From Escherichia phage moha, in sequence record MN850590.1: DNA of 64,000 nt. One strand, written 5' to 3'. Both the position numbers and the translations under genes were made by a program. Under the pieces are notes generated by a model. The model ran no database searches and was not told the DNA's origin. It worked only from the letters and a program-made list of their open reading frames with translations. Shown here in pieces: positions 12,436 to 51,820 of the stretch (position 1 is its first letter; each line of letters begins with the position of its first letter).

Positions 12436-13068
12436 ATGTCTAAAGTTACTTACATCATCAAAGCTTCTGAAAACGCTCTGAATGAAAAAACTGCTGCAAT
12501 AATGGTTTATATCATTAAGAACAACTTCACCACTGCTGCCAATGTCCGTGAAGCTCTGGAAGCGGAATACAATGCATCAGTTGTTAACTCTAACATTGGT
12601 GTATTGATTAAGAAAGGTTTAGTCGAAAAATCCGGTGATGGACTTATAGCAACAGGCGAAGCAATGGATATTATCCAAAAAGCTGCAGACCTATTTGCTC
12701 AAGAAAATGCTCCAGAACTTCTTCAGAAACGTAACACCAGAAAAGCACGTGGAGTTACTCCTGAAATGCATGAACTAGCAAACTTTGTTTTTGAAAATAT
12801 TAAAGATAAAGTTGAAGTTAAAGAAATTGGTGAAAACCGTAGTAACTTAGAAGTTCGATTTGCAAAACGAGTTCTAGGTATTCGTCAGATCGAAATTCGT
12901 CGAGATGGCGCTCTTAGAATCTTTGCATACAACATGTCAGAAACTGAATCAAAACTGTTTACTTCTCTTGAAAATGATGTTAAGATTAAGATCGGTGGTA
13001 AATATACTTACATTGACTTCCCTAATGTGTCCAAAGAAATCATTACCCTTGTAACTAACGTACTGTGA
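12436..13068 (+). CDS. motA: middle-transcription activator MotA
   Basis: 210 aa (T4 MotA 211 aa); N-terminus MSKVTYIIKAS and NIGVLIKKGLVEKSGDGLI match recalled T4 MotA. Confidence 0.9.
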   Translation: MSKVTYIIKASENALNEKTAAIMVYIIKNNFTTAANVREALEAEYNASVVNSNIGVLIKKGLVEKSGDGLIATGEAMDIIQKAADLFAQENAPELLQKRNTRKARGVTPEMHELANFVFENIKDKVEVKEIGENRSNLEVRFAKRVLGIRQIEIRRDGALRIFAYNMSETESKLFTSLENDVKIKIGGKYTYIDFPNVSKEIITLVTNVL

Positions 13069-29055: not shown

Positions 29056-29084
29056 AGACCTATCAACAACATGAGGAAATCAAA

Positions 29085-35517: not shown

Positions 35518-35521
35518 GGAC

Positions 35522-35541
35522 GGGACTTCGGTCCCACTTTA
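35522..35541 (+). terminator. hairpin terminator after nrdB
   Basis: GGGAC-TTCG-GTCCC then ACTTTATT. Confidence 0.5.
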
Positions 35542-35543
35542 TT

Positions 35544-35954
35544 ATGAAAGATATCGCCGCCGAATATTCCTTTATTAAATATACAGAATTGGAGCTATTA
35601 GAAGATGCAACAATTAAAACAGTTGATGTCCCTAATAAGAAAAATGTCATATATGCTATTGCTATAGATGACGAACTTGTGTATATTGGTAAAACCAAGA
35701 ATTTAAAGAAACGCATTAACTATTATCGAACAGCCATAAATCGAAAAGACCAGACTTCAGATTCAAGAAAATCACTTATGATTTTGGATGCCTTAATGCA
35801 AGGCAAAAAGGTTGAATTCTGGGCCCGCCAATGTTTTGACCTTTCAGTCACCAACGAACTTGGTTCAATGACCATCGCAACAATGGACCTTGAAGAACCG
35901 CTTTTTATCAAAAAGTTCAACCCGCCTTGGAATATCCAACATAAGAAAAAGTAG
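35544..35954 (+). CDS. denA: endonuclease II (GIY-YIG family)
   Basis: 136 aa = T4 DenA; GIY-YIG-like VIYAIAIDDELVYIGKT; synteny after nrdB. Confidence 0.8.
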   Translation: MKDIAAEYSFIKYTELELLEDATIKTVDVPNKKNVIYAIAIDDELVYIGKTKNLKKRINYYRTAINRKDQTSDSRKSLMILDALMQGKKVEFWARQCFDLSVTNELGSMTIATMDLEEPLFIKKFNPPWNIQHKKK

Positions 35955-35983
35955 TTTACATACCACAAGGATTGTGGTACAAT
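35954..35983 (+). promoter_or_regulatory. early promoter upstream of rnlA: -35 GTTTAC, -10 TGgTACAAT
   Basis: GTTTAC 35954-35959, TACAAT 35978-35983; palindrome CCACAA/TTGTGG 35963-35977. Confidence 0.5.
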
Positions 35984-36002
35984 TTAAAAAAAAACTAACT
36001 GA

Positions 36003-37136
<1,134 letters not shown>

Positions 37137-37138
37137 TG

Positions 37139-37168
37139 GTTTACAAACACCAAGGATGGTGATACTAT
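37139..37168 (+). promoter_or_regulatory. early promoter upstream of alc: -35 GTTTAC, -10 TGaTACTAT
   Basis: GTTTAC 37139-37144, TACTAT 37163-37168. Confidence 0.45.
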
Positions 37169-37197
37169 GGGTTTATCAACAACACGAGGAGAAAATT

Positions 37198-37698
37198 ATG
37201 AATATGCAATTGATTACTAACGATATGGTCGTAAACGCTTTTGGAGACACAACTGACGGAATCCGGGTCTTTAAGAAAGGACGTCCAGTTGGTTATCTTA
37301 CTGACCTACGTGTTACACTGGCCAAAAATCTTAAAAAGAAAGTAAAACAAAAAGAGTATTCAACCCGATACGCTGAAGAGAAACGCGAAGCGATGCCAGA
37401 AGCAGTTAATGCTATGGTAGAATTTCTTCAAAACAATTTGACTAAATATGACGCTAATGTGTTCATTAATATTAGTCAACCAAACGTACATATCGCAGGT
37501 ATCAAATTCTATATTATTTGCGACCCTCTTACCGACAAATTCAACCGTCTCGGAATTTCAAGTCCATATCATACAGCAGAAGAGTTGTGTGTATTGTTTG
37601 AATCGTACAAAATCCAGTGTGATGGTTTGAAAACCGTTCTTATCAATGGATTATCCCGAGATGAAATCATTGAGATTATTAAAACATGCTTAAAGTAA
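37198..37698 (+). CDS. alc: Alc (host transcription unfolding/termination on dC-DNA)
   Basis: Listed 37156..37698; ATG 37198 has GAGGAG RBS and gives 166 aa (T4 Alc 167 aa); synteny. Confidence 0.65.
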   Translation: MNMQLITNDMVVNAFGDTTDGIRVFKKGRPVGYLTDLRVTLAKNLKKKVKQKEYSTRYAEEKREAMPEAVNAMVEFLQNNLTKYDANVFINISQPNVHIAGIKFYIICDPLTDKFNRLGISSPYHTAEELCVLFESYKIQCDGLKTVLINGLSRDEIIEIIKTCLK

Positions 37699-38042
37699 AT
37701 CCTATTTACGCTATAGTAGCAGCTTTTGCTCTAGTTTCTACGGTAACAATAGTTGTCTTAAACAACAAAGTTGATTCGTTGAATACTGAATTAGCTTCTG
37801 TCAAAGAGACTGCTAAAAACAATGCTAAAGTATTAGATGACTTCAAGGTTCAATATCAGTCAATCGAAGAAATGACTTATAAGAACCGTGTTTTAGTTGA
37901 CCAACTTAAGGCCGAAAATGAAAAGCTCCGTAAGGATTCGAAGAAGAAGAACGTGGTGGCAAGTAAGCCAGGATTGGTCGAAAAACAAATCAACAGGTCC
38001 TTCGATTCCTTTGCAGAAGACCTCAGGAAGCTCTCAGAATGA
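37686..38042 (+). CDS. i-spanin (inner-membrane spanin subunit, PseT.3-like)
   Basis: 118 aa; N-terminal TM helix then coiled-coil-like periplasmic domain; overlaps downstream lipoprotein gene. Confidence 0.7.
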   Translation: MLKVNPIYAIVAAFALVSTVTIVVLNNKVDSLNTELASVKETAKNNAKVLDDFKVQYQSIEEMTYKNRVLVDQLKAENEKLRKDSKKKNVVASKPGLVEKQINRSFDSFAEDLRKLSE

Positions 38043-38329
38043 TTAAATTAACTGTGGCTGTATTATCTATTGGTCTCCTAGTTGGATGTACTCAGGATGT
38101 GCCAGTAAGCCCTAAAGAAACTTTACATCCTTCATGGCCTACGCCTATTTCCGAATATAACCAGAAATGGCAAGTAAAGGTTATTGATGGTAACCCATGG
38201 GTTGGAATGCCGTTTGAAGACTCTCAAGAATTTCGTATCTGGTTAAACGACGTAAAAAGATATATACATGACCAGAAGACTATGTTATGTTATTATCGTA
38301 GTGGTTTAAAAGAGGAAAAATGCCAATGA
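38039..38329 (+). CDS. o-spanin (outer-membrane lipoprotein, PseT.2-like)
   Basis: 96 aa; signal peptide with lipobox LLVGC; start overlaps i-spanin stop. Confidence 0.7.
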   Translation: MIKLTVAVLSIGLLVGCTQDVPVSPKETLHPSWPTPISEYNQKWQVKVIDGNPWVGMPFEDSQEFRIWLNDVKRYIHDQKTMLCYYRSGLKEEKCQ

Positions 38330-38544
38330 CTAAAGAACAGCATGAATACATTAAAGGGCTTATCTATGAATCTGAAATGGCGGCTATGATTTATGGACGC
38401 CAGATTCAACGATTAGAATCTTTGCCTCCGACTAATGACCGCTTGTTAGTTCAGTCTCGTGCTAATCTGAAAAATGAATATCAGAATAAGTGGGCAGTAG
38501 CGACTAAAGCTCTTCATGAGTATATTGAATCTTTAGTAAAATAG
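38320..38544 (+). CDS. hypothetical protein (pseT.1-position)
   Basis: 74 aa ORF. Confidence 0.5.
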   Translation: MPMTKEQHEYIKGLIYESEMAAMIYGRQIQRLESLPPTNDRLLVQSRANLKNEYQNKWAVATKALHEYIESLVK

Positions 38545-38573
38545 TTTACAAACTCTCGGGAGCAGAGTATAAT
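38544..38573 (+). promoter_or_regulatory. early promoter: -35 GTTTAC, -10 TATAAT
   Basis: GTTTAC 38544-38549, TATAAT 38568-38573; palindrome GGAGCA/TGCTCC 38559-38578; near-copy of promoter at 10061. Confidence 0.5.
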
Positions 38574-38601
38574 GCTCCTATGGATAATTGAGGAAATCTA
38601 A

Positions 38602-38900
38602 ATGAAAACATTACTAGAGAATTACATCAAACGGTCTGATGAGTATATTGATATCTGCCGTGGAATGACACTTGTAGATTATGACAAAGATGCAGCAAAG
38701 GCACTAGATGAAGCAGGTAAAGCTCTTCGTAAAGCTGCTAAAGAAAAAGGGTTGGATTTGCAACAACTCAAAAGTCATATGATTAAATTTATTTCTTCAA
38801 ACGTTAGAAGTACGTCAATTAATAAAAACGTTGCTGAAATTAATAAAGACCGGCGCGAACTCAACATTCGTATTCTTGAAGCTTTCTTAGGAATCAAATA

Positions 38901-38901
<1 letters not shown>
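38602..38901 (+). CDS. hypothetical protein
   Basis: 99 aa ORF with GAGGAA RBS after early promoter. Confidence 0.55.
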
Positions 38902-39988
<1,087 letters not shown>

Positions 39989-40180
39989 ATGAAACGATTA
40001 TATGAAGTGATTGAGGCCATCGAACATCATAAAGAATATTTGTTTGTAGCCTGGCCTTTAGTAAATGGACAGTTCGGTATTGATGTGCTGGACTATGAGC
40101 ATGAAGAACGTTTGGACGGCGGTATATTTGATAACGTCGACCAGGCAATTGAATGGTTAAATGAAAACTATGTACGATAA
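39989..40180 (+). CDS. hypothetical protein
   Basis: 63 aa ORF. Confidence 0.45.
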   Translation: MKRLYEVIEAIEHHKEYLFVAWPLVNGQFGIDVLDYEHEERLDGGIFDNVDQAIEWLNENYVR

Positions 40181-40385
40181 ACATCATGAAATCGAAGATG
40201 AAGCATACAAAATGCTTCGTAAACTAGTGGGACTTAATATGAGTCCTACATTAATCAACAAACTCGCAGGAATTCGTAATGATCTGAATACTCGTTACAA
40301 AGGTGAATATCATGTAGAGTTTGTTCCTGTAGGTGAACCAACCGAGCGATTTGTTGTTCGAGTTAAAGTAAATACTGTGCACTGA
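40161..40385 (+). CDS. hypothetical protein
   Basis: 74 aa ORF; start may be the internal ATG at 40170. Confidence 0.45.
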   Translation: MKTMYDKHHEIEDEAYKMLRKLVGLNMSPTLINKLAGIRNDLNTRYKGEYHVEFVPVGEPTERFVVRVKVNTVH

Positions 40386-40392
40386 GGTAATT

Positions 40393-40668
40393 ATGTTCCC
40401 AACTTATTCTGAAATTGTAAAGGTAGTCTTCAGTCAGATTATTGCTAATAATATGTTTGAAGTGCTTGATAATGCAGCCGAACTCAGAGTTCATGCTCAA
40501 GTAACTCATGTACTTAATGCTTTGCTCCCAGACCAAGTAGATTCTATTGCTATTACTCTTCTCCCTGGATCTGCACACGTCATCGTGGTATTTGATCTTG
40601 ACGGCGATTTAGTTATCCAATGTGATATCAATTTCGGTACACAAAAAATTGAATGCAAAGCAATTTAA
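40393..40668 (+). CDS. hypothetical protein
   Basis: 91 aa ORF. Confidence 0.5.
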   Translation: MFPTYSEIVKVVFSQIIANNMFEVLDNAAELRVHAQVTHVLNALLPDQVDSIAITLLPGSAHVIVVFDLDGDLVIQCDINFGTQKIECKAI

Positions 40669-40691
40669 TGGTTTACAACGCGGTGGAGTTG
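40662..40691 (+). promoter_or_regulatory. early promoter: -35 GTTTAC, -10 TGaTATGAT
   Basis: GTTTAC 40662-40667, TATGAT 40686-40691; imperfect palindrome 40673-40701. Confidence 0.45.
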
Positions 40692-40729
40692 TGATATGAT
40701 TAACTCTACCGACAAATGAGGAAATCGAA

Positions 40730-40966
40730 ATGCTAAGTGAAAACCCAATTACAGTACACGAATTTCAGATTAAAGTAAAAGAATTTGCTCAAGCACTCAT
40801 CAATAAAGTGTCTGAACGTTTCCAAGATGCAACATTACGAGTTATTCAAGAATCTCCACGTTCTTTTCTCATAATCGTTAATCCTAAAGATGGTGACCAG
40901 ATTACTAGCCTTAAATTAGGCAGTGACGGTTTAGTTGAAGCAACTCGCGTATACGGAACACTATAA
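40730..40966 (+). CDS. hypothetical protein
   Basis: 78 aa ORF with GAGGAA RBS after early promoter. Confidence 0.5.
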   Translation: MLSENPITVHEFQIKVKEFAQALINKVSERFQDATLRVIQESPRSFLIIVNPKDGDQITSLKLGSDGLVEATRVYGTL

Positions 40967-41547
40967 TGAAAGCTAGCACATATCTTCAGATTGCTTATCT
41001 GATTTCTCAAGAATCAAAATGTTGTTCATGGAAAGTTGGTGCGGTCATCGAAAAGGATGGGCGCATTATCTCTACGGGTTATAATGGGTCTCCTTCAGGT
41101 GGTACAAACTGTTGTGACCATGCTACCGAACAAGGTTGGTTGAAGAATAAACCAAGCCCGGTCATCGTTGCTGGGCATAAAGAAGGCACTACAGCATTTG
41201 GACGGGTGGATAATTTTGTTTTGGCTAAAGAACATCGGGCCGCTCATAGTGCATGGTCTGCTAATAACGAAATCCATGCTGAATTGAATGCAATTTTGTT
41301 TGCAGCTCGTAAAGGTAATTCTATTGAAGGTGCTACGTTATATACGACACTTTCTCCATGTCCTGATTGCACTAAAGCTATCACACAGTCAGGCATTAAA
41401 AAGGTTGTATATGCAGAATTATATGACCGGTCTCCTGAAAATTGGGCAGACATTCTAAAACAAGCTGGTATTGAAGTAATTCAGTACTCTCGTAATAATC
41501 TTCGTTCTCTGAATTGGGAACAAATTCGAAACTTTTGTGGTGAATAA
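40966..41547 (+). CDS. cd: dCMP deaminase
   Basis: 193 aa = T4 Cd; Zn-binding HAELNAI and PCPDC motifs. Confidence 0.95.
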   Translation: MKASTYLQIAYLISQESKCCSWKVGAVIEKDGRIISTGYNGSPSGGTNCCDHATEQGWLKNKPSPVIVAGHKEGTTAFGRVDNFVLAKEHRAAHSAWSANNEIHAELNAILFAARKGNSIEGATLYTTLSPCPDCTKAITQSGIKKVVYAELYDRSPENWADILKQAGIEVIQYSRNNLRSLNWEQIRNFCGE

Positions 41548-41845
41548 TATGATTTTAACTGAACAAGAGACTATGGTTCTTCGTGAACGTATTAAAACTA
41601 TTCTGTCTGTAGGAGTTCATTGTGTTGTATTTGAAAAGGCTAACGGTGAGGTACGCACTATGTTTGCTTCTCGCGATGAACTTGAAGTCAAATATGAAAA
41701 TAACAATCCGGCAACAGAAGTTCGTTCTGAACCTCGTGAATCAGTTCGAGCATTCGATACCAAGTTAGGTCAGTGGCGTTCTTTCCGCCTTGATAAAGTA
41801 ATTTCGGTTGATGGTACTCCGGTAGAACGTTTGCTTCTTATGTAA
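41537..41845 (+). CDS. hypothetical protein
   Basis: 102 aa ORF between cd and 31. Confidence 0.5.
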   Translation: MVNNMILTEQETMVLRERIKTILSVGVHCVVFEKANGEVRTMFASRDELEVKYENNNPATEVRSEPRESVRAFDTKLGQWRSFRLDKVISVDGTPVERLLLM

Positions 41846-41847
41846 TA

Positions 41848-41872
41848 TGCTTTACGAATAGTATGGTATTAT
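41848..41872 (+). promoter_or_regulatory. middle (MotA-dependent) promoter upstream of gene 31
   Basis: MotA box TGCTTTA 41848-41854, 12 nt, -10 TATTAT 41867-41872. Confidence 0.5.
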
Positions 41873-41902
41873 TAATCTATCGTCAAACAACAAGGAAATA
41901 AG

Positions 41903-42235
41903 ATGTCTGAAGTACAACTCCCAATTCGTGCTGTTGGTGAATATGTCATTCTGGTTTCTGAACCCGCTCAAGCAGGTGATGAAGAAGTTACCGAATCAGG
42001 ACTTGTGATTGGTAAACGTGTTCAAGGTGAAGTTCCTGAACTATGTGTAGTTCATTCTGTAGGTCCTGATGTTCCTGAAGGTTTTGTTGAAGTCGGTGAT
42101 TTGACTCCACTACCAGTTGGACAAATTCGAAATGTTCCACATCCATTTGTGGCTTTGGGACTTAAACAACCTAAAGAAATTAAACAGAAATTCGTAACAT
42201 GCCATTATAAAGCTATTCCGTGTCTTTATAAGTGA
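41903..42235 (+). CDS. 31: co-chaperonin gp31 (GroES functional analogue)
   Basis: 110 aa (T4 gp31 111 aa); recalled near-identity; MotA-box promoter upstream. Confidence 0.9.
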
Positions 42236-42243
42236 TATAAATA
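42236..42243 (+). promoter_or_regulatory. late promoter (TATAAATA) for rIII
   Basis: Exact TATAAATA directly after gene 31 stop; hairpin GAAGAG-AACA-CTCTTC at 42251-42266 in leader. Confidence 0.5.
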
Positions 42244-42359
42244 ACTATATGAAGAGAACACTCTTCTAAGCGGTAGCCTACAACTGAGAGACTTGTCGAA
42301 AGAAGGTGAAATTCAGACGAACGTGGCTACTAAATATTATCTCGAATTGAGAATTTAAA

Positions 42360-42608
42360 ATGATTAAACAATTACAACACGCTCTTGAACTGCAACGTAA
42401 CGCATGGAATAATGGTCACGAAAACTACGGCGCGTCGATTGATGTTGAAGCCGAAGCACTGGAAATCCTGCATTATTTCAAACATCTGAACCCGGTACAG
42501 GCAGCTTTGGCCTCTGAACTGGAAGCAAAAGATGAACTGAAATATGCTAAGCCTTTGGCTTCTGCAGCTCGTAAAGCAGTACGTCATTTTGTTATTACCC
42601 TAAAGTAA
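42360..42608 (+). CDS. rIII: lysis-inhibition accessory protein RIII
   Basis: 82 aa = T4 RIII; recalled strong similarity; late promoter TATAAATA upstream. Confidence 0.85.
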   Translation: MIKQLQHALELQRNAWNNGHENYGASIDVEAEALEILHYFKHLNPVQAALASELEAKDELKYAKPLASAARKAVRHFVITLK

Positions 42609-42686
42609 GTTAAATCGAGGAGCCGTCGAACTGTCTGATTAATGATTTGCGAATCATTATAGTTTTAAGTCCCCGGCAGTTTTACG

Positions 42687-42715
42687 GTGTACCTCTTGAA
42701 TGTATTTTGTACTAT
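42687..42715 (+). promoter_or_regulatory. candidate sigma70-type promoter inside rIII-downstream non-coding region
   Basis: GTGTAC 42687-42692, 17-nt spacer, TACTAT 42710-42715; weaker match than other early promoters. Confidence 0.3.
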
Positions 42716-42871
42716 CACGCGTCAGAAAAAGGTTATCTGTCTAAGTCGTGGTTGGTATGATGACGGGTTTATGGTTATCCTGTCGTTAAATATCCAAAAC
42801 CTATGTTCCCCTTGAGGGCTTGCGCAGGCAATGTCAATAAGTCCTGCATTTTCATTTAAAGAGAATTTATA

Positions 42872-43051
42872 ATGGCAAAACAAGCTAAAGCAAAGAAAGC
42901 AGTTGAAAAGAAAGTTGATGGTACCTCTAAACGCGCTGGATACAAGCGTGGGTCGAACTCTCGTATTAATCAAACAGTTGAGAAGATCATGCGCAGAGCA
43001 CGTGCAGTTCTTCGAGATGATGCTTCTCGTTTTGGAAAGGTTGTTGCATAA
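42872..43051 (+). CDS. small lysine/arginine-rich protein (59 aa), unlisted ORF
   Basis: ATG 42872 to TAA 43049-43051; MAKQAKAKKAVEKKV...; followed by GGGAGAC-UUCG-GUCUCCC terminator; below ORF-track cutoff. Confidence 0.45.
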   Translation: MAKQAKAKKAVEKKVDGTSKRAGYKRGSNSRINQTVEKIMRRARAVLRDDASRFGKVVA

Positions 43052-43056
43052 TTTTA

Positions 43057-43081
43057 GGGAGACTTCGGTCTCCCTTTTGTG
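43057..43081 (+). terminator. intrinsic terminator after small basic ORF
   Basis: GGGAGAC-TTCG-GTCTCCC then TTTTGTG; same hairpin sequence as the gene 32 terminator. Confidence 0.7.
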
Positions 43082-43111
43082 CGTTTAGGGCAGAAAAAGT
43101 TTAAAAAAAAT

Positions 43112-43140
43112 GTTTACTCTCCTGTAGGATGTGTTACTAT
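43112..43140 (+). promoter_or_regulatory. early promoter: -35 GTTTAC, -10 TGtTACTAT
   Basis: GTTTAC 43112-43117, TACTAT 43135-43140. Confidence 0.5.
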
Positions 43141-43182
43141 AGACTTGTACCACCTAATCGATAAAACAAACCGGAGAACAAA

Positions 43183-43551
43183 ATGAAAATCAATCTGAAC
43201 TCATACATCAAATGTAAAGACCACGACGGTTATAAAGCTATCGAAATTAAAGAATTCCAGTGGATGTTATACAAAGAGCAATTTGAGTTCGTAGGTTGTA
43301 TGACCCCTGAAGGTCCTTCAGATGATTTCTCTTGGAAAATTGTGTTAGCAAACTTTTTCACAGGTGACACATATGAATTAAAAACTATTATTACCGGTAA
43401 AATTCGTTCAGAAACATATGTTGACGAAGAAACTGGTTACTCTGAAGATGTTACATGGTATCAAAATGGACGCATTACAGCAGATAACCTGATCGAAAAA
43501 ATGAAAGCCAAAGGTGTTTTAAATTTAGACAATTGGATTAAAGTTGCATAA
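43183..43551 (+). CDS. hypothetical protein
   Basis: 122 aa ORF after early promoter, GGAGA RBS. Confidence 0.55.
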   Translation: MKINLNSYIKCKDHDGYKAIEIKEFQWMLYKEQFEFVGCMTPEGPSDDFSWKIVLANFFTGDTYELKTIITGKIRSETYVDEETGYSEDVTWYQNGRITADNLIEKMKAKGVLNLDNWIKVA

Positions 43552-43555
43552 AACA

Positions 43556-43584
43556 GTTTACTTTGGTACAGGTTATGTTATTAT
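43556..43584 (+). promoter_or_regulatory. early promoter: -35 GTTTAC, -10 TGtTATTAT
   Basis: GTTTAC 43556-43561, TATTAT 43579-43584; 9-bp palindrome GGTACAGGT/ACCTGTACC 43565-43595. Confidence 0.5.
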
Positions 43585-43625
43585 AGACCTGTACCAACAA
43601 ACAACTTAAACATCTGGAGAATAAA

Positions 43626-43991
43626 ATGAACTACACCAACTTCGAACGTAAATATGTTTCTAACGGTATTGCTGGTTCTTCTGAAGTTATTTGCTTATGG
43701 AAACACGAAAACGGTACAGTTTGTGAAATCGAACAGTGCATGACTCCTAATTACGTTTATATGCGATTTGAAAATGGTATCACGGTTTCAATCACGATGG
43801 AAGGTTCAAATTTTAAAATTGCATTAGATGATGATTTCCGTCAGCGTGATTTAGGTACTCATCCTTGCTGGAATGGTGTTAATCGTAAACTTCTGGTTAA
43901 AACTTGGATTCGTCATATCCTGAGCAACCGAGCTAAACCTGAACATCTCGAAGCAATCTTTGATGTAGTTCTTAACGAATTTGATATCTAA
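43626..43991 (+). CDS. hypothetical protein
   Basis: 121 aa ORF after early promoter. Confidence 0.55.
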   Translation: MNYTNFERKYVSNGIAGSSEVICLWKHENGTVCEIEQCMTPNYVYMRFENGITVSITMEGSNFKIALDDDFRQRDLGTHPCWNGVNRKLLVKTWIRHILSNRAKPEHLEAIFDVVLNEFDI

Positions 43992-44026
43992 ATTAATTGG
44001 GAGCTTCGGCTCCCATTGAGGAAATT

Positions 44027-44641
44027 ATGTTTAAAGTTAATACTTTTTATAAAATGAATTTTAAAAATGGGGATATTACTCCACGCCTTAAAAACATGTT
44101 CTCATATGACCTTATCGAGCCTTTTGAAGTTTTAGAAGTTACTGATGCCGGCTCGGTTTGTGAAATTAGAACTTCTGAAGGTAAAATTTATCAGGCCGGT
44201 GTTGGTAAATTCAGTAATTGTTTTACTTTAATATTCTCGACCGATTTAGATGAGCATTTTATTGAATGTCCTAACCCTAAGGTCTATGAAGTTCCACATC
44301 AAGAAACTAAGAAAAATGGACCGCACGAATATACGAAGGTTGAAACTCCTCACGGCGTGATGTGGCGACATAACTCTCCTTTTGGAAGTAAAGGAACATT
44401 TGCTCAACTGGCTAAGCCCTACGACGATGAAAAATATGTAGTAGTCCTTTTATCTGAACAGGGTACTCAAGACCGTGGATGCCAGCGTTCCGGTTTATTG
44501 AGTGAACTCGAAGCTCATAACCTAGCACGTGAATTCGTTGAGAAAAATCCTGGTTCTGAAGCTCTAGTCATGAAAGCAATTACTCAATATATCACTGCTC
44601 AACCTGTTGTTCATCCGGTAGAAATTAATTTCATTAAGTAG
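44027..44641 (+). CDS. hypothetical protein
   Basis: Listed 43997..44641; start moved to ATG 44027 (GAGGAA RBS), since 43997 lies inside the upstream hairpin. Confidence 0.5.
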   Translation: MFKVNTFYKMNFKNGDITPRLKNMFSYDLIEPFEVLEVTDAGSVCEIRTSEGKIYQAGVGKFSNCFTLIFSTDLDEHFIECPNPKVYEVPHQETKKNGPHEYTKVETPHGVMWRHNSPFGSKGTFAQLAKPYDDEKYVVVLLSEQGTQDRGCQRSGLLSELEAHNLAREFVEKNPGSEALVMKAITQYITAQPVVHPVEINFIK

Positions 44642-44695
44642 TGTACATCCAAGGACGGATTAGAGTATAATGATTTCTTTAGTAAGTGGAAAAAT

Positions 44696-44893
44696 ATGAA
44701 ATTTTTAATAGCACAAACAGTCCAATTAAAAGGTGTTGGAATCCCTGGGATGATTTTTAAAGTTCTCAACGAATTTAAAACTGCCGCTGGAATTATCAAT
44801 GAAGCGTATGCTGTTCAATGGGTTGATGGGACTTCTGACATACGTATGGGTAAAGAGTTATCTCCTATTAAAGGGTTGAAACATGTTGAATAA
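44696..44893 (+). CDS. hypothetical protein
   Basis: 65 aa ORF. Confidence 0.45.
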   Translation: MKFLIAQTVQLKGVGIPGMIFKVLNEFKTAAGIINEAYAVQWVDGTSDIRMGKELSPIKGLKHVE

Positions 44894-45101
44894 ATTAATC
44901 CAGAAATTGTTTGGTACGGAAATGATTGAAGTTACTTATCGTGTAACCGACGTTTTTCCATATTACGCGGAAAACCGTTTAGAACCATACGTTACGTCAA
45001 TTAAAATGCCTAAAAATGACAGAAATTTATCTATCGAAGACCGTATACCTGGATACGGACATTGGGCTGATGTTGAAATTATAAGTGTTAAAGATGTCTG
45101 A
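44883..45101 (+). CDS. hypothetical protein
   Basis: 72 aa ORF. Confidence 0.45.
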   Translation: MLNKLIQKLFGTEMIEVTYRVTDVFPYYAENRLEPYVTSIKMPKNDRNLSIEDRIPGYGHWADVEIISVKDV

Positions 45102-45552
45102 ATTAGAAATAAGAAGTAATTTCAAATGGCCGTCATGTGCATTAAGTAACTTTGCTCAATGGCCTTTTGTTATGGATGGTATTCAATTCGGAGGTCTTGA
45201 AGGATTTCTCCAAGGATGTAAGGTGAAAAATGTTGAACAACAAAGACGTATATTTGGGCTGTCAGGACTGGCCGCACAGCAAGCTGGAAGGTCTTATGCA
45301 AGAGCTCAGGACCGTGGGACTCTCTTCTGGTTAGGAGTTCCATTTTCAAGATACTCTGAAGCGTGGAAAGAATTATACACAAATGCATATTTTGAAGCCG
45401 CGATCCAAAACAAGGGGTTTCGTGATGCCTTACAAGCCTCTAAAGGAAAAATTTTGAAGCACAGCATGGCCAGCCACCTAACAAAAGATGATACAATATT
45501 AACCGAAGCCGAATTTATTGATGTGTTAAACCTATTAAGAGACTCTTTATGA
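45085..45552 (+). CDS. NADAR / YbiA-like (DUF1768) protein, T4 30.3-position
   Basis: 155 aa; LSNF...DG...AW..LY motifs resembling YbiA/NADAR family. Confidence 0.55.
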   Translation: MLKMSELEIRSNFKWPSCALSNFAQWPFVMDGIQFGGLEGFLQGCKVKNVEQQRRIFGLSGLAAQQAGRSYARAQDRGTLFWLGVPFSRYSEAWKELYTNAYFEAAIQNKGFRDALQASKGKILKHSMASHLTKDDTILTEAEFIDVLNLLRDSL

Positions 45553-46373
45553 AGCCTACTATTTTGACTGATATTGATGGTGTATGTTTAAGCTGGCAAT
45601 CTGGACTTCCTTATTTTGCCCAAAAATATAACCTTCCATTAGAACATATTTTAAAAATGATTCAGGACGAAAAATTTATTTCTCCTGGTAAACTGTTCAA
45701 TACCGACGATAACCTTGGTAAACAATTAATAGAAAAATATAATAGCTCTGATTTTATTCGTTACTTAGCGCCTTATTCTGATGCTCTTCGAGTTATCAAT
45801 AAACTAAAAGAAGACTATAATTTTGTAGCCGTGACGGCGCTAGGTGATTCAATTGATGCTCGATTGAATAGACAATTTAATTTGAATGCTTTGTTCCCAG
45901 GCGCTTTCTCTGAAGTAATGATGTGTGGTCATGATTCTTCAAAGGAACAATTATTCGAACTAGCTAAAACAAAATATAACGTGATTTGTTACGTTGACGA
46001 TTTAGCTCATCATTGTGACCATGCAGCAGAAATTCTTAATGTACCGATTTATTGGTTGGCTCGTGGTGAACGTGATGCCATTCCTCGTACTGCACAACGT
46101 GTACACACGTGGGATGATATTGAATCTCGTTTGGTTCTGCCTAAGAATAATTCAGATTCAGATCGTGAAGACCTTTTAAAACGATTGGCGGATTTGCTTA
46201 AAGAATCTGGTGCAACAAGCCCAGGTGCATGGCCTAATCAAATTGGTGGCCCCTCGACAACACGTACTCCATATACCTGGCGAACCCCAGGACCAACTGA
46301 TATGCAGCCGTGGTGGACGATTCAAAACTTTCCTTTAGATTCGTCTAAATGGACTTGGTCTATAAATTGTTAA
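45549..46373 (+). CDS. HAD-superfamily phosphatase-like protein, T4 30.2-position
   Basis: 274 aa; N-terminal DIDGV (DxDG) motif; unusual Pro/Trp/Thr-rich C-terminal tail. Confidence 0.55.
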   Translation: MKPTILTDIDGVCLSWQSGLPYFAQKYNLPLEHILKMIQDEKFISPGKLFNTDDNLGKQLIEKYNSSDFIRYLAPYSDALRVINKLKEDYNFVAVTALGDSIDARLNRQFNLNALFPGAFSEVMMCGHDSSKEQLFELAKTKYNVICYVDDLAHHCDHAAEILNVPIYWLARGERDAIPRTAQRVHTWDDIESRLVLPKNNSDSDREDLLKRLADLLKESGATSPGAWPNQIGGPSTTRTPYTWRTPGPTDMQPWWTIQNFPLDSSKWTWSINC

Positions 46374-46382
46374 GGGTTAATT

Positions 46383-46652
46383 ATGTTTGTAGTTCATGAT
46401 ATTACAGATGGCAAAAATACCACACGTGACTACGGTCACGTTAACATGTTCTTTCGAGACTGGCCATTGTTTCGTTCAGTAAAAGACGCAGAAATATTTA
46501 AAGAGTGTGTTGAACAAGGGTTCATCTACATTTCAGAATACTATGTTGAAGGACTCGGTAAATGGATTACAACTTATCAGAAAACGCTGAAATCGCTTCT
46601 AGATGAAGTGGCTTATAATAGAACCGTAACCAAAATCGAGGACATCAAATGA
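46383..46652 (+). CDS. hypothetical protein (30.1-position)
   Basis: 89 aa ORF. Confidence 0.5.
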   Translation: MFVVHDITDGKNTTRDYGHVNMFFRDWPLFRSVKDAEIFKECVEQGFIYISEYYVEGLGKWITTYQKTLKSLLDEVAYNRTVTKIEDIK

Positions 46653-48142
46653 TTTTAGATATTTTAAACCAAATAGCTGCGATCGGTTCTACTAAAACAA
46701 AACAAGAAATCCTTAAGAAAAATAAGGACAACAAATTACTTGAACGTGTGTATCGTTTAACATATGCACGTGGTATCCAGTATTATATTAAGAAATGGCC
46801 AGGACCAGGTGAAAGGTCTCAAGCGTATGGTCTTCTTGAATTAGATGACATGTTGGATTTTATTGAGTTCACATTAGCCACTCGTAAACTCACTGGTAAT
46901 GCTGCAATTAAAGAGCTCATGGGTTATATCGCTGATGGTAAACCTGATGATGTAGAAGTCCTTCGTCGTGTAATGATGCGCGACCTTGAAGTAGGTGCTT
47001 CAGTGTCTATCGCGAATAAGGTGTGGCCTGGACTTATTCAATTGCAACCACAGATGTTAGCATCTGCATATGACGAGAAATTGATTACTAAAAATATTAA
47101 ATGGCCCGCATTTGCCCAATTAAAAGCAGACGGTGCTCGTTGTTTCGCTGAAGTTCGCGATGATGGTGTTCAATTCTTTTCTCGTGCCGGCAACGAATAT
47201 CATGGTCTTACTCTATTAGCGGATGAACTAATGGAAATGACTAAAGAAGCTCGTGAAAGACACCCTAATGGGGTTTTAATCGACGGTGAATTAGTTTACC
47301 ATTCATTTGATATTAAAAAGGCTGTGAGCTCAGGAAATGACCTGTCGTTCTTATTTGGTGATAATGAAGAATCCGAAGAAGTACAAGTTGCGGACCGTAG
47401 CACTTCAAACGGTTTAGCAAATAAATCTCTTCAAGGGACTATTTCTCCTAAAGAAGCTGAAGGTATGGTTCTTCAAGCCTGGGACTATGTTCCTTTAGAT
47501 GAAGTCTATTCTGATGGCAAAATTAAAGGTCAGAAATACGATGTTCGTTTTGCTGCTCTTGAAAATATGGCTGAAGGCTTTAAACGAATTGAGCCAATTG
47601 AAAATCAGTTAGTTCGTAATCTTGACGAAGCTAAAGTGGTTTATAAAAAATATGTTGACCAAGGTCTTGAAGGTATTATCCTTAAAAACCGTGATTCATA
47701 TTGGGAAAACAAACGTTCTAAGAACCTAATTAAATTTAAAGAAGTTATTGATATCGCTTTAGAAGTTGTAGGATACTATGAACACTCTAAAGACCCTAAC
47801 AAATTAGGTGGTGTCGAACTCGTATCACGTTGTCGTCGTATTACAACCGATTGTGGTTCAGGGTTTAAAGATACAACTCATAAAACAGTTGATGGTGTAA
47901 AGGTTCTTATTCCTTTAGATGAGCGACATGATTTGGACCGTGAACGATTAATGACCGAAGCTCGTGAAGGTAAATTGATTGGACGTATTGCTGATTGTGA
48001 ATGCAATGGTTGGGTTCATTCTAAAGGACGTGAAGGCACTGTAGGTATTTTCCTCCCAATTATTAAAGGGTTCCGTTTTGATAAAACAGAAGCGGATTCG
48101 TTTGAAGACGTATTTGGACCGTGGTCCCAGACAGGTTTATAA
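46649..48142 (+). CDS. 30: ATP-dependent DNA ligase
   Basis: 497 aa (T4 ligase 487 aa); adenylation motif KADGARC. Confidence 0.9.
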   Translation: MILDILNQIAAIGSTKTKQEILKKNKDNKLLERVYRLTYARGIQYYIKKWPGPGERSQAYGLLELDDMLDFIEFTLATRKLTGNAAIKELMGYIADGKPDDVEVLRRVMMRDLEVGASVSIANKVWPGLIQLQPQMLASAYDEKLITKNIKWPAFAQLKADGARCFAEVRDDGVQFFSRAGNEYHGLTLLADELMEMTKEARERHPNGVLIDGELVYHSFDIKKAVSSGNDLSFLFGDNEESEEVQVADRSTSNGLANKSLQGTISPKEAEGMVLQAWDYVPLDEVYSDGKIKGQKYDVRFAALENMAEGFKRIEPIENQLVRNLDEAKVVYKKYVDQGLEGIILKNRDSYWENKRSKNLIKFKEVIDIALEVVGYYEHSKDPNKLGGVELVSRCRRITTDCGSGFKDTTHKTVDGVKVLIPLDERHDLDRERLMTEAREGKLIGRIADCECNGWVHSKGREGTVGIFLPIIKGFRFDKTEADSFEDVFGPWSQTGL

Positions 48143-48330
48143 TGAAAGCTTATTTAGAAACAGTTATTGTAGCTAAGAAGGATGGTGGAGATGTTTCCAC
48201 CTCTTGCTCTCAGATTATATTAGATTTTCCTAATGAAAATTCGTATCGGGTTTTCGTAGATAACGTTAATGGGTACGAAAAAGGCCCTAATTTTGAAGTT
48301 TATCGTACTTTGCTCCCGATTGTGGATTAA
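48142..48330 (+). CDS. hypothetical small protein
   Basis: Listed 48121..48330; ATG 48142 overlaps ligase stop (TAATG); followed by terminator hairpin. Confidence 0.4.
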   Translation: MKAYLETVIVAKKDGGDVSTSCSQIILDFPNENSYRVFVDNVNGYEKGPNFEVYRTLLPIVD

Positions 48331-48351
48331 GAGCCTTCGGGCTCTTTTTGG
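48331..48351 (+). terminator. intrinsic terminator before alt
   Basis: GAGCC-TTCG-GGCTC then TTTTTGG. Confidence 0.65.
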
Positions 48352-48385
48352 CATAAATATAAATTATTACTAAAAGGAAAACACT

Positions 48386-50473
48386 ATGTCTGAACAAATA
48401 AACGAAGTGTTTGAATCTGAAGGCAGTCTTCCTGTCGTCAATTTGAACCCTAAAGCTAAAGTTCCACAAGTCTGGAAAATTGGTGATATCGATACAAATA
48501 TTGTAGTTCGTTTATTCTCTTACCTTTCCGAAGGCGACGCTGTAAAACAAGTTAAACTTGGCGACAAATACGCTCATGTTGTTATTATGAGTCTGTCTGA
48601 AAAGGGTAATCTCGCTGAATTGAAAAATGGCCTTGGTCCTGCTCCTATTGATGCAATCAACACCATTTTCAATACAGTATATGAACAAGTTAAAGCTCTT
48701 CGTATGGATGCAGTTCTGTTCCGATTCCCTACCAAGAAATTGAAAGGACGTGGACAACAGCTTCAAACTCTTCTTGCTCGTTTAGTTTCTACTAAAACCG
48801 GTGGTCGTTTTAAAGTATTGTCGGCAATGTATCAATTCACAGGTAAACACACCTATGTGATGATGGTTCGTAAAAATGCCAACATTGAAGATATTAAAGG
48901 CATCCCTAACATTAACACAGAGTTGTACACGAAAGTAGATTCTGATGTTGGCGAAGTTTATGTGAGTAAAAAGACTGGCGAAACGGTTACCAAAGAAACT
49001 GCTATCGCTGGTTCTATTGCCGCGGTAGAAGAAAAACGTAAAGATAAGCCTGTTATTGCTCGCACCAAAATTTCTCGTCGTGCTATTGCAGCAAGTCAAT
49101 CTTTAGAAGCTGACCGACAAGAAGGTGAGTTATTCCAGAAATACGAAAATTCTGCTAAAGAAGTTAGTGGCCCAGCTACAGCCGAATTACTTCCTGAAGC
49201 ATATGAAATCGTACTAGCCCAAGCATCGTCCACAGCAAAAGGCACTTTAGTTGCTGATATCGAAAATAAGATTTATAATCGTATTGATGAATCCTTTAAA
49301 TTTGCTGATGAAGTTTCTTATGGTAGTGTTATTAAGCCGACTTTAGAAAAGTTTGCTAAGAAAATTAAAACCGAAAAAACAACATCTGTTAAAGCATTAG
49401 CTGCTTTTGTTGAAGCTGCAAATGAAATTGCAGACTCTATTAAAGACGAATGGTTTGAAGATTTTAGACGTGATAATTTCCAATTGCCTGACGACGTTTT
49501 AGCTGAAGTATCTGAAAGAACTTGGAAACAACGTAAATCAGCGTTCTTGTCTAATGTGATGTATACTTATGCACGAGAATCGGCTAGAGGCACCTTTAAT
49601 ATAACAATGAATCGGGACCCTAAACAATACTCTGTTGCTGAAAAACGAGCTATTCGCGAATATGCCTCTTCTGCGTATACCGATATCAATAATATGTTGT
49701 TAGGCCGGTATAAACCGGATTTTTATGATGTTGCAGATGAAGATGAAGTTAAACGCGCTATTGATGGTCTTGATTCGGCGTTTTTAAATGGAGACCGTTT
49801 ACCTGAAGGACTAACGTTGTATAGAGCCCAGTCTATCAGAATGCCTATTTACGAAGCAATGGTTAAAAATAAGGTATTCTACTTCAGAAACTATGTTTCT
49901 ACTTCATTAGCTCCTATTATTTTTGGTGGGTTTAAAGAGAACGTTGCCCTTGGACTTGCTCCTGAAGAAGTTCGCAAAGAGCTTAACATTGACAATAATG
50001 ACGAAGGTGTTACTATTTCTCCTAGTCAAGTAAGAACAGCTATGCATGCACCAGAACAAATCCGTGTTAACGTTGGATGGGCTATCGATGGCGCCCATAA
50101 AGTTAACGTGATTTACCCGGGTCAGTTGAGTAATCACCCTAATGAGCAAGAAATTATTTTGCCTAGAGGCATTCTCTTGCAGATAAATAAAATTACAGAT
50201 GCGTCATCTGACACTGGTGCAGGTTTAGAATCCAACCTTAAATTTATTCAAGCTGAAGTCATGTCCTCGGACCAGTTGGACGAAGCTGTCATTTACGATG
50301 GTGATGTTCTCATGGAAACAGGCGAGGTAGTTGCTATGACGGGTGAAATCGAATCAGATGAGCCGGTATCTTTTGCCTCATTTGTAGAAAAAACTAGTGC
50401 ACCTAAAGGTTTGAAATTGTTAGCATCTTTAATGGATTTAGAATCAGTTCCGTTTAAATTTATCCAAGGATAG
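48386..50473 (+). CDS. alt: ADP-ribosyltransferase Alt (virion-packaged)
   Basis: 695 aa (T4 Alt 682 aa); position after ligase and before gene 54; assignment by size and synteny. Confidence 0.7.
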   Translation: MSEQINEVFESEGSLPVVNLNPKAKVPQVWKIGDIDTNIVVRLFSYLSEGDAVKQVKLGDKYAHVVIMSLSEKGNLAELKNGLGPAPIDAINTIFNTVYEQVKALRMDAVLFRFPTKKLKGRGQQLQTLLARLVSTKTGGRFKVLSAMYQFTGKHTYVMMVRKNANIEDIKGIPNINTELYTKVDSDVGEVYVSKKTGETVTKETAIAGSIAAVEEKRKDKPVIARTKISRRAIAASQSLEADRQEGELFQKYENSAKEVSGPATAELLPEAYEIVLAQASSTAKGTLVADIENKIYNRIDESFKFADEVSYGSVIKPTLEKFAKKIKTEKTTSVKALAAFVEAANEIADSIKDEWFEDFRRDNFQLPDDVLAEVSERTWKQRKSAFLSNVMYTYARESARGTFNITMNRDPKQYSVAEKRAIREYASSAYTDINNMLLGRYKPDFYDVADEDEVKRAIDGLDSAFLNGDRLPEGLTLYRAQSIRMPIYEAMVKNKVFYFRNYVSTSLAPIIFGGFKENVALGLAPEEVRKELNIDNNDEGVTISPSQVRTAMHAPEQIRVNVGWAIDGAHKVNVIYPGQLSNHPNEQEIILPRGILLQINKITDASSDTGAGLESNLKFIQAEVMSSDQLDEAVIYDGDVLMETGEVVAMTGEIESDEPVSFASFVEKTSAPKGLKLLASLMDLESVPFKFIQG

Positions 50474-50502
50474 TTTACAAACACATGGATGTGTGATACT
50501 AT
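50473..50502 (+). promoter_or_regulatory. early promoter: -35 GTTTAC, -10 TGaTACTAT
   Basis: GTTTAC 50473-50478, TACTAT 50497-50502; palindrome GGATG/CATCC 50487-50507. Confidence 0.45.
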
Positions 50503-50531
50503 CATCCAATCAACAACATGAGGAAAACGTT

Positions 50532-50825
50532 ATGAAATCTATGCTTCGCTTTAATGGTCAAGAACTAGTAGTTGAAGATGTTATCCCGGCAGATGATGTT
50601 TTTAACGAAGCTGTGATTGACGAATTGAATCGAGTATTCCCAGGTGCATTCCATATTGCTATGGAACCTCTTAAAAACTTTCGTGACCCTGAGCACACTG
50701 ATCAAATTTTTGTCGGTGTAGTGACAGGTCATTTAGAAACAGAGGTACCAATGGTCGTATTAGTTAAATACTCTAAAGATGATACTCCATTCCGAGCACC
50801 AGCATTCCTTTCATTCCGTAAATAA
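50532..50825 (+). CDS. hypothetical protein
   Basis: Listed 50493..50825; ATG 50532 follows GAGGAA RBS downstream of early promoter. Confidence 0.5.
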   Translation: MKSMLRFNGQELVVEDVIPADDVFNEAVIDELNRVFPGAFHIAMEPLKNFRDPEHTDQIFVGVVTGHLETEVPMVVLVKYSKDDTPFRAPAFLSFRK

Positions 50826-50834
50826 ACCCCTAAA

Positions 50835-50857
50835 GGGAGACAACGTCTCCCTTTTTC
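50835..50857. terminator. terminator hairpin between convergent + ORF and gene 54
   Basis: GGGAGAC-AAC-GTCTCCC then TTTTTC. Confidence 0.55.
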
Positions 50858-51820
50858 TTATAGTCCTAAAACTCTTGACGCTGAATTCACCACACCTGTC
50901 AATGTGTTTATATTAGACACGCCACCAGCAGTCCCACCTAATCTAGAAAGTCTTGATACTGCACTTCCTAGCCCAGAATCATTCTGATTATTTCCAAACA
51001 TTCCTGAAACACTACTAATAAGTCCTGATTCCAGCCATTCTAAAGCAGCCTGTCTATTTACAGCACCTGATTGCATAACGCGATAAGCAAATGTTACGTC
51101 AAAAACTGTTATCTGATTATCACCATCATACGTTAACTCAGGAGAAGAGACACTAACAGGAATACATCCAGTGAACATGACAGCGGTATGTGGTAAACCA
51201 TTTCGTGCATGTAAATTAACCTGAATATCTGCTTCGACGTCTTGTGGTAAAGCACGAAGACCTGTTACAGGGTCTTGGACCGAGTTTACCCAGTCTTGCA
51301 TTGCTCTAAAGTTAGATGCTTCAGAATCCATTCTAAAGCTTATTACTAACGGGTCCATTTCACGGCCGGTAATTCGGATGTTCGGTGAGTTATAGTTGAA
51401 ATCCGTTTCATAAGATAATCGGTTCTCAGGCATTTTTACAGAATAAATCATTAAACCTGTATTATTATATGCCATATTGAAGAAGTCTATCAGATAAGCT
51501 CCTACTGTGAACTCACCTAACAAGCTTTGTACCGTACGTTGACTCATTGCTCCAATCAGATATTTACTTATACCTGATTTTCGAATTAATTTCTGTGTTC
51601 CTGCTGTAATCAGGGTTGTTACGCCCTGATTGATATCACCTTGAGACAATCCTAGCCAATCTGAATCCAACCCTAAGTTATTATAAGCAAAACTACCAAT
51701 TGACGAAATTAGTGAAGACGATTTGGTTGATGGTGTAGTAGCAAATACACAACTAAACATATTGTTTCGTTGGAAATCTGCATTTATAGCTTGGTTATTA
51801 AATTCTTCTAAAGAGTACAT
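50858..51820 (-). CDS. 54: baseplate tail-tube initiator gp54
   Basis: 320 aa = T4 gp54; synteny. Confidence 0.8.
   Translation of the reverse strand: MYSLEEFNNQAINADFQRNNMFSCVFATTPSTKSSSLISSIGSFAYNNLGLDSDWLGLSQGDINQGVTTLITAGTQKLIRKSGISKYLIGAMSQRTVQSLLGEFTVGAYLIDFFNMAYNNTGLMIYSVKMPENRLSYETDFNYNSPNIRITGREMDPLVISFRMDSEASNFRAMQDWVNSVQDPVTGLRALPQDVEADIQVNLHARNGLPHTAVMFTGCIPVSVSSPELTYDGDNQITVFDVTFAYRVMQSGAVNRQAALEWLESGLISSVSGMFGNNQNDSGLGSAVSRLSRLGGTAGGVSNINTLTGVVNSASRVLGL

Follow-up and report, generated by a model that had tools for sequence, protein, structure and literature searches.

Inverted repeats in T4-type early promoters of Escherichia phage moha as candidate stem-loops of promoter-gene cassettes

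Early promoters of the window and their inverted repeats

The 64,000-nucleotide (nt) stretch of Escherichia phage moha DNA analyzed here (MN850590.1; hereafter the window) is by sequence that of a T4-like Mosigvirus, with region 43000-46000 sharing 99.4% identity with Escherichia phage vB_EcoM_KAW3E185 (Straboviridae, Tevenvirinae, Mosigvirus). Early transcription runs along its + strand from a series of T-even-type promoters, and the inverted repeats (IRs) that lie in and around the -10 elements of these promoters are the subject of this work. A scan of the window for GTTTAC-N13-15-TGnTAnnAT returns 12 exact matches against 0.04 expected, all 12 on the + strand; the pattern GTTTAC-N17-TGnTAnnAT, as written in an earlier interpretation made from the letters alone (the sequence-only reading), returns none, since its N17 counts the nucleotides up to the -10 hexamer instead of those up to the TG. 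A relaxed promoter rule that is blind to IRs yields 15 promoters, to which two TGTACA-type sites were added for a total of 17. The upstream flanks of these promoters are A/T-rich, the ATG follows 26-42 nt past the -10, and at hairpin-bearing promoters the stop codon of the preceding gene lies -1 to 12 nt from the -35, so that the upstream stop is usually abutted. The genes driven by each promoter were assigned to T4 orthologues by tblastn against T4.

Eight of the 17 promoters carry a robust hairpin that encloses the -10, with z-scores of -2.8 to -7.2 when RNA folding is compared with 200 dinucleotide-preserving shuffles; all eight cassettes are on the + strand. At P43556 (43556..43628), upstream of the gene 30.7 orthologue, the -35 GTTTAC (43556-43561), the extended -10 TGtTATTAT (43576-43584), a Shine-Dalgarno (SD) sequence GGAG and an ATG at 43626 accompany the arms TTGGTACAGGT (43563-43573) and ACCTGTACCAA (43587-43597), which contain the IR first noticed at 43565-43595 and fold at -17.9 kcal/mol (z -5.1); these arms are kept in relatives in which the flanks have diverged. 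At P74 (74..131), upstream of the motB.2 orthologue, with its -35 at 74-79, -10 TATTAT at 97-102 and ATG at 129, the left arm TTCTCCTCTGGTT (80-92) forms a 13-bp helix with the right arm AACCAGAGGAGAA (112-124) at -23.7 kcal/mol (z -7.2), and the right arm covers the SD, GAGGAG. The 11-pair helix of P40671 (40671..40732; cd.2 orthologue; ATG 40730) joins 40681-40691 to 40701-40711 around a 9-bp core, GGTGGAGTT/AACTCTACC, with one G.U (G.T in DNA; z -5.2). Neither P74 nor P40671 was picked up in the sequence-only reading.

The remaining five fall largely into paralogous pairs. P9290 (9290..9348; ATG 9346) has arms TAGGACTA (9303-9310) and TAGTCCTA (9319-9326) with the extended -10 as the loop (z -3.2); its paralogue P9799 (9799..9859; ndd.1 orthologue; ATG 9857) forms a 12-pair helix including G.U, 9809-9820 with 9827-9838, about the Watson-Crick core GTAGGA/TCCTAC at 9811-9836 (-16.1 kcal/mol, z -5.3). 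P10063 (10061..10136; ndd orthologue; -35 TGTACA 10061-10066; TATAAT 10084-10089; ATG 10134) pairs tGAGAGCA (10073-10080) with TGCTCTCa (10089-10096), which extends the IR noted at 10074-10095 (z -3.3), and P38544 (38544..38604; ATG 38602) pairs GGGAGCA (38558-38564) with TGCTCCT (38573-38579) through one G.U, the IR noted being 38559-38578 (z -2.8). The open reading frames (ORFs) downstream of P9290 and P38544 have no T4 homologue by tblastn. Finally, P655 (654..713; cef orthologue; -35 TGTACA 654-659; TGaTACTAT 674-682; ATG 711) has arms GGTCTAT (668-674) and ATAGACC (681-687) (z -3.8). P655 and P10063 are thus the two sites with a weaker -35, TGTACA replacing GTTTAC, and both bear hairpins. 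Since P9290/P9799 and P10063/P38544 are paralogous, the hairpins represent about six independent families.

All eight IRs listed in the sequence-only reading are present at the coordinates it gave, and six of them bracket the -10 and beat the shuffles; GGATG/CATCC (50487-50507) does no better than chance (z -0.5, a fold matched by 47 of 200 shuffles), and CCACAA/TTGTGG (35963-35977) is significant (z -3.15) yet lies wholly within the spacer and does not bracket the -10. Its tally of 9-10 of about 15 promoters was therefore somewhat high, and its proposal of one geometry throughout gives way to at least three, as seen in minimum-free-energy folds of read-through and own transcripts and in duplex mapping. 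In class a, the left arm occupies about -27..-15 of the spacer and contains a conserved GGA, the right arm spans about -8..+6, and the extended -10 forms a loop of 6-13 nt. In class b, which includes P74, the left arm is directly 3' of the -35 and the right arm is the SD region, ending 1-8 nt ahead of the ATG, with loops of about 20 nt. Class c, represented by P35954, is a 5-8 bp hairpin contained in the spacer. Right arms favor two positions, either -8..+8 or an end 1-8 nt before the ATG.

Because the left arm is placed between the -35 and -10 elements, a transcript that starts about 7 nt after the -10 would exclude it; with the start placed in the loop or the 3' arm of classes a and b, the promoter's own mRNA would lack the 5' arm, in keeping with what the sequence-only reading had proposed. 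The leaders of such own transcripts fold at about 0 kcal/mol.

Pairing is promoter specific, in fixed register and maintained by compensatory change

To separate promoter-specific pairing from consensus effects, the segment downstream of each promoter was set against either its own spacer or the spacer of a different promoter, a control that retains the position-specific consensus. The longest Watson-Crick stem averages 5.6 for own pairs and 3.9 for other pairs, none of 20,000 permutations reaches the observed mean, and the corresponding duplex-energy test on the window promoters gives p = 5e-5. The eight hairpins also fold more stably than their shuffled counterparts, and from the shuffle and cognate controls together we conclude that the feature is real, at 8 of 17 promoters.

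The same holds in T4 (NC_000866), in which the same promoter rule identifies 34 intergenic early promoters: a duplex of -12 kcal/mol or better between the spacer and its own downstream segment is found in 41% of these 34 and in 8% of non-cognate pairs (0 of 20,000 permutations), with the right arms at the same two positions as in the window. Class a is exemplified by the T4 early promoters at 20612, 57990, 73939, 7215, 129918 and 133331, and class b, which accounts for about 10 of the 34, by those of motB.2 (8218), regB (62797), denV (65413), nrdC.8 (53943), ndd.4 (166807), alc (136336), alt.-3 (123093) and 30.8 (130310). When the window and T4 are combined with 20 loci from IMG/VR, a public viral-contig collection, a helix score of 7 is reached by 51% of the 96 unique cassettes and by 8% of non-cognate pairs. 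Protein-seeded locus searches retrieved 15-18 close relatives each, and RB49 is the only distant T4-like phage in the sample; its cassettes GGGGATAT..ATATCCCC and GGGTGTAT..ATACACCC bracket the -10 with the same geometry as in the window. No Rfam family matches within the window.

Register was analyzed across all 57 non-redundant promoters with an 18-nt spacer, with or without a hairpin. The partner of column x is column 51-x, and the axis of symmetry falls between -12 and -11. Paired cells amount to 53.5% in this register and drop to 30-42% once the partner column is shifted by 1-3 positions; likewise, the covariation score of 0.284 compares with 0.115-0.184 for shifted partners and 0.202 +/- 0.015 for shuffled ones, and none of 500 shuffles reaches 0.284. 

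Orthologous and paralogous promoters show how the pairing is kept as the arms change. The cd.2/cd.3 promoter has the arms GGTAGGACT/AGTCCTACC, GGTAGAGTT/AGCTCTACC and GGTGGAGTT/AACTCTACC in different orthologues, with two pairs changed on both sides through G.U intermediates. The 30.7 promoter pairs GGTACAGG/CCTGTACC in the window and T4 and GGTGTAGG/CTTACACC in L020, one of the related loci, and in another, L016, it instead forms an 11-bp helix between spacer and SD, CTCCGTTGTAT/ATACAACGGAG. Among paralogues, GAGAGCA/TGCTCTC of P10063, GGGAGCA/TGCTCCT of P38544 and GGGACCA/TGGTCCC of T4 7215 differ by compensatory changes. This combination of fixed register, covariation and double substitutions bears out the suggestion of the sequence-only reading that a structure with variable arms is conserved here, and not a shared protein-binding site.

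These data bear directly on two alternative explanations. The first is that the repeats arise by chance or as a by-product of the promoter consensus (GGA at about -21, CC at -3 to -1), with pairing itself unselected. GG(A) does occur at a fixed spacer position (about -21..-19) in nearly all window promoters and (T)CC at -3..-1 in many, the latter a C preference that was reported without explanation by Nolan et al. 2006, and the promoter consensus is therefore itself weakly self-complementary: non-cognate pairs in the true register already give 47% standard pairs. Chance is also sufficient for GGATG/CATCC at 50487-50507. It is refuted for the eight strong hairpins, for which cognate pairing far exceeds non-cognate pairing, z-scores reach down to -7 and orthologues show double compensatory substitutions; it holds only for weak 5-bp cases, and as a general account we regard it as very improbable. 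The second holds that a dimeric DNA-binding regulator shuts off the early promoters and uses the palindromes as its operators. They do cover the -10, and the mechanism of T4 early-promoter shut-off is not fully understood; the arms, however, are completely different in sequence from promoter to promoter and from orthologue to orthologue, with pairing preserved, G.T positions break the dyad symmetry of the DNA, half of the promoters lack any repeat, and no common half-site can be derived. An operator function is accordingly the least credible of the readings considered here.

Sense-strand bias and the level at which the repeats act

Hairpins were chosen strand-symmetrically for a comparison of sense and antisense folds (44 hairpins, 31 representatives). 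The sense-strand RNA fold is the stabler in 37 of the 44 and in 27 of the 31, and the mean difference among the representatives is -3.7 kcal/mol (p ~1e-5). In the stems, G.T exceeds A.C, which was scored equally, by 20:2 in all helices and by 16:1 in unique helices, a ratio that becomes about 10:1 when counted as independent events and is marginal relative to non-cognate pairs (about 2:1; p ~0.07 by hand estimate). As the sense strand is favored, G.T is in excess and class b arms are aimed at the SD, we favor a structure in read-through RNA of the sense strand, the non-template DNA strand being a formal alternative, over a symmetric cruciform. Of the two roles raised in the sequence-only reading, a hairpin in read-through RNA thus gains support and a DNA cruciform does not.

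Other DNA-level roles deserve consideration, namely that a cruciform or single-strand hairpin modulates promoter melting, or that the repeats are recombination hot spots or linkers for cassette shuffling, with RNA folding incidental. The symmetry axis at -12/-11 coincides with the site at which melting nucleates, but the axis needs no DNA-level cause, since the arms fill the nearest free positions flanking the fixed TGnTAnnAT. A symmetric cruciform predicts no strand bias and would be expected from a perfect symmetric IR with a very short loop; the loops found here, 6-13 nt in class a and about 20 nt in class b, disfavor extrusion, G.T positions interrupt the symmetry, and arms directed at the SD make no sense at the DNA level. 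The related elements of other phages described below recombine into mini-circles, of 95 distinct homology-block boundaries 11 fall within promoter cassettes, where 4.3% would be expected, the mosaic block 43557-44033 begins exactly at the -35 of P43556, and the T4 GenBank record has the loop of the 133.3 kb early promoter once reported inverted. The boundary excess may, however, merely reflect poorly conserved intergenic DNA, and a recombination-linker role could exist alongside the RNA explanation without taking its place. On balance, we consider it improbable that a DNA-level role accounts for the repeats.

Block 43557-44033, which contains the 30.7 promoter, its gene and a hairpin at 43998-44015, is 87-89% identical to L003-L007 and L015 between flanks of 66-78% identity, and looks like a horizontally exchanged promoter-gene module. 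In the T4 record, a misc_feature at NC_000866 133300-133313 (L019 14301-14314) reads "inverted complement of previously reported sequence" and corrects early promoter Pe133295; these 14 bases coincide exactly with ttgtgaTATTATag, the loop that separates the class a arms GGTAGAG and CTCTACC, and hence this loop was once read, or cloned, in inverted orientation.

The start of translation in read-through and own transcripts

The promoters of motB.2 provide the clearest view of class b. In five lineages the SD is buried in read-through RNA by a helix that is different in each: TTCTCCTCTGGTT/AACCAGAGGAGAA in the window, TTCCTCGGTTAGTTGTGGT/ACCATAGCTACTGAGGA in T4, TTCTCCTCATG/CATGAGGAGAA in the L029 group, and, in L027/L039 and in L028, two solutions in which the 3' half of the -10 and the discriminator pair with the SD and AUG. 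This is strong comparative evidence that what has been selected is the masking of the translation start on read-through RNA. More broadly, the SD lies in a long-transcript helix at P74 and at the T4 promoters of motB.2, regB, denV, alc, alt.-3, nrdC.8 and ndd.4, and the mean unpaired probability of the SD-AUG region is 0.43 in read-through RNA versus 0.64 in own transcripts. In a chimeric-promoter test, SD accessibility is 0.43 with a non-cognate segment and 0.37 with the cognate one (p = 0.005), a modest cognate effect.

Strong embedded hairpins are found at 14 of 32 promoters that have no canonical terminator upstream and at none of 10 that have one (p = 0.009). This alternation, together with the abutting stop codons, fits a role for class a in the handling of read-through, as an attenuator or 3'-end barrier.

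Promoters without an enclosing hairpin and associated features

The shuffle test detects no significant hairpin at P12368 (motA orthologue), P25732 (rnh orthologue), P29027 (frd.2 orthologue), P37139 (alc orthologue) or P43112, and that of P14866 (asiA orthologue) is borderline (z -2.4). The P43112 cassette (43057..43185, + strand; 30.8 orthologue; z +0.18) has a canonical terminator, GGGAGACttcgGTCTCCC plus a T-run, at 43057-43074 ahead of the promoter, which is annotated as a terminator in a relative; the promoter itself shows only a weak 5-bp TCTCC/GGAGA pairing between spacer and SD. A terminator GGGAGACTTCGGTCTCCCTTTTG is common to two promoters, being found upstream of P29027 and at 43057-43074 ahead of P43112, and a related one, AGGGAGCTTCGGCTCC, precedes P12368. 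By their sequence, the terminators ahead of P29027, P43112 and P12368 are repeated terminator-plus-promoter cassettes of the upstream-stem-loop type of the promoter-early stem-loops (PeSLs) considered below.

P50473 (50473..50534, + strand; alt.-3 orthologue) is the promoter with the chance-level GGATG/CATCC repeat; its T4 orthologue instead has a 16-bp helix between spacer and SD. P35954 (35954..36014, + strand; rnlA orthologue) carries the spacer-internal mini-hairpin of class c, 35961-35968 paired with 35972-35979 (CCACAAggaTTGTGG), and the same type, with the -10 outside, occurs at T4 Pe 2458, T4 Pe 50973 and L003:17610. 

A further full match to the early promoter (GTTTAC-N18, TGtTAAGAT) is found at 12957-12986, within the motA-orthologue ORF (12436-13068) and about 90 nt ahead of the next gene; it has no embedded hairpin. 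Many cassettes also have in common a near-identical leader, (ag)acctATCAACAACATGAGGAAA, 3' of the -10 (e.g., 29056-29084, 37169-37197 and 50503-50531), the ATCAAC motif of which likewise follows many T4 early promoters. The repeat unit would therefore be promoter plus 5' untranslated region plus SD, and not the promoter alone.

Relationship to known stem-loop systems

The closest precedent is that of the PeSLs of RB49 and phi1, each an early promoter with a stem-loop (Arbiol et al. 2010, PMC2839356), in which the stem-loop most often lies between the boxes or overlaps the -10 and the stems are shown with their G-T pairs marked. The RB49 cassettes examined here include both of these subclasses (e.g., GGGGATATagcataATATCCCC). 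The window elements resemble PeSLs in that they repeat an intergenic arrangement of stop codon, AT-rich region, strong sigma70-type early promoter, stem-loop, SD and ATG; in that they flank small variable ORFs, with 17 copies in 64 kb; and in that the stem-loop lies inside or overlaps the promoter, eight enclosing the -10 and one being internal to the spacer. They differ in that the promoters are of the T-even GTTTAC type and not TTGACA, and in stems that are AT-richer and have no polyG/polyC motif. Since promoters with built-in stem-loops have already been published as PeSLs, the feature in the window is real but largely ordinary.

Arbiol et al. proposed for PeSLs both a terminator or attenuator role and a recombination-linker role, including the formation of mini-circles; the word "translation" does not occur in that paper (PMC2839356). 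Comeau et al. 2014 (PMC4122927) extended PeSLs to PST/T4 and nt-1/KVP40, and the portions of that paper drawn on here locate T-even stem-loops directly upstream of the promoter instead of around its -10, and contain no mention of pairing between spacer and SD.

A second precedent is provided by hairpins that hide the translation initiation region (TIR), in T4 that of e, soc, 49, I-TevI/II/III and segB and in Aeh1 that of mobE. There, SD or AUG is sequestered only in long transcripts, and a promoter within the DNA that encodes the 5' arm gives rise to a transcript that escapes and is translated, exactly the logic of class b. In the known cases the inner promoter is late (TATAAATA) or middle, which results in late-only translation, whereas an early GTTTAC/TGnTAnnAT promoter as in the window would lead to immediate-early-only translation; class a hairpins differ further in excluding the SD. 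The T4 reviews and the five-genome paper describe internal-promoter hairpins only for late or middle promoters, and we found no description of SD masking embedded in an early promoter in the PeSL papers or T4 reviews, the older T4 literature lying outside the search. The spacer-SD geometry at early promoters (P74; about 10 of 34 in T4) may therefore be new.

Two other systems bear on class a. Intrinsic terminators are likewise hairpins in sense RNA at the end of the upstream gene, and they alternate with embedded hairpins (at 43057/43112 of the window, and upstream of P12368 and P29027); the embedded hairpins differ in having no U-run, stems of lower GC content and large loops. The stable hairpin that Edgell et al. 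2010 (PMC2988022) describe at seg43(25) of Aeromonas phage 25 resembles class a in having its base immediately upstream of a ribosome-binding site that is itself unpaired, but it contains no embedded early promoter.

Discussion

We propose, with a probability of roughly 0.65, that the IRs are the stem-loops of PeSL-type early-promoter cassettes and insulate each promoter-gene cassette from upstream transcription. Such a cassette reads, in order, upstream stop codon, AT-rich UP region, GTTTAC -35, spacer, TGnTAnnAT, short unstructured leader, SD and ATG. Only in the spacer can the promoter sequence vary freely, and in this view the spacer has been recruited as the 5' arm of a hairpin with the -10 in its loop, the 3' arm being the discriminator/+1 region in class a or the SD region in class b. 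The hairpin is predicted to form in read-through transcripts from densely spaced upstream promoters, and the leader of the promoter's own mRNA to stay open. In class b, ribosome binding would be blocked on read-through RNA, with translation essentially only from the gene's own early promoter; in class a, a stable hairpin 7-11 nt ahead of the SD would most plausibly attenuate the upstream message or form a barrier at its 3' end.

The published interpretation of PeSLs is that the hairpins terminate or attenuate incoming RNA polymerase, so that expression of the downstream gene depends on its own promoter alone, no translational effect being required. One RB49 stem-loop, PeSL211/210, cut lacZ expression in a transcriptional fusion as much as rrnB T1 (Arbiol 2010, PMC2839356), and the mutual exclusion of strong embedded hairpins and canonical upstream terminators is what would be expected of redundant functions. 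The class a hairpins, however, have a higher AT content than their RB49 counterparts, lead into A-rich sequence that lacks a U-run and go unflagged by a terminator scan, and class b has loops of about 20 nt and targets the SD specifically, which termination does not require. Termination on its own is therefore rather unlikely, although it retains more substance than the explanations set out earlier.

Several observations weigh against the insulation reading. About half of the window promoters have no significant hairpin, and the G.T excess over non-cognate pairs is marginal. The start sites are predicted from their spacing to the -10 (about 7 nt past it). Non-cognate segments also lower SD accessibility, and so the class b effect is partly that of a generic pyrimidine-rich spacer. 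In the seven class a hairpins of the window the SD is unpaired in minimum-free-energy folds, and a terminator scan of 35000-51000 flagged no embedded hairpin, finding no U-run and A-rich sequence past the 3' arms; given an unpaired SD and no U-run, the function suggested for class a is a guess. 

Two variants were considered and set aside. That class a hides a false start signal in the extended -10, an SD-like GGA followed by an ATG, is at odds with a GGA-ATG spacing of only 2-3 nt and with the many left arms that have no SD-like motif. That the class b helix is melted by a ribosome terminating on the upstream ORF is at odds with the position of the left arm, at least 9-15 nt past the stop and probably beyond the expected reach.

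If the insulation reading is correct, each of the densely packed, tandem strong promoters would control how much its own small gene is expressed while read-through expression would not add up, and it would be explained how promoter-gene cassettes can be moved between genomes without disturbing their neighbors. For annotation, hairpins over T4-type early promoters should not be labeled as terminators or protein operators. More tentatively, and with somewhat less than even confidence, the comparative data raise the prospect that in about one-third of T-even-type early promoters the spacer acts as an anti-SD arm, an immediate-early-only translational gate whose helix has been repeatedly reinvented. 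A class b gene would then not be translated from read-through RNA that began at an early or middle promoter farther upstream, and the spacer-SD variant, if it works in this way, would represent a simple timing device in the T4 early program, the shut-off of which is not fully understood.

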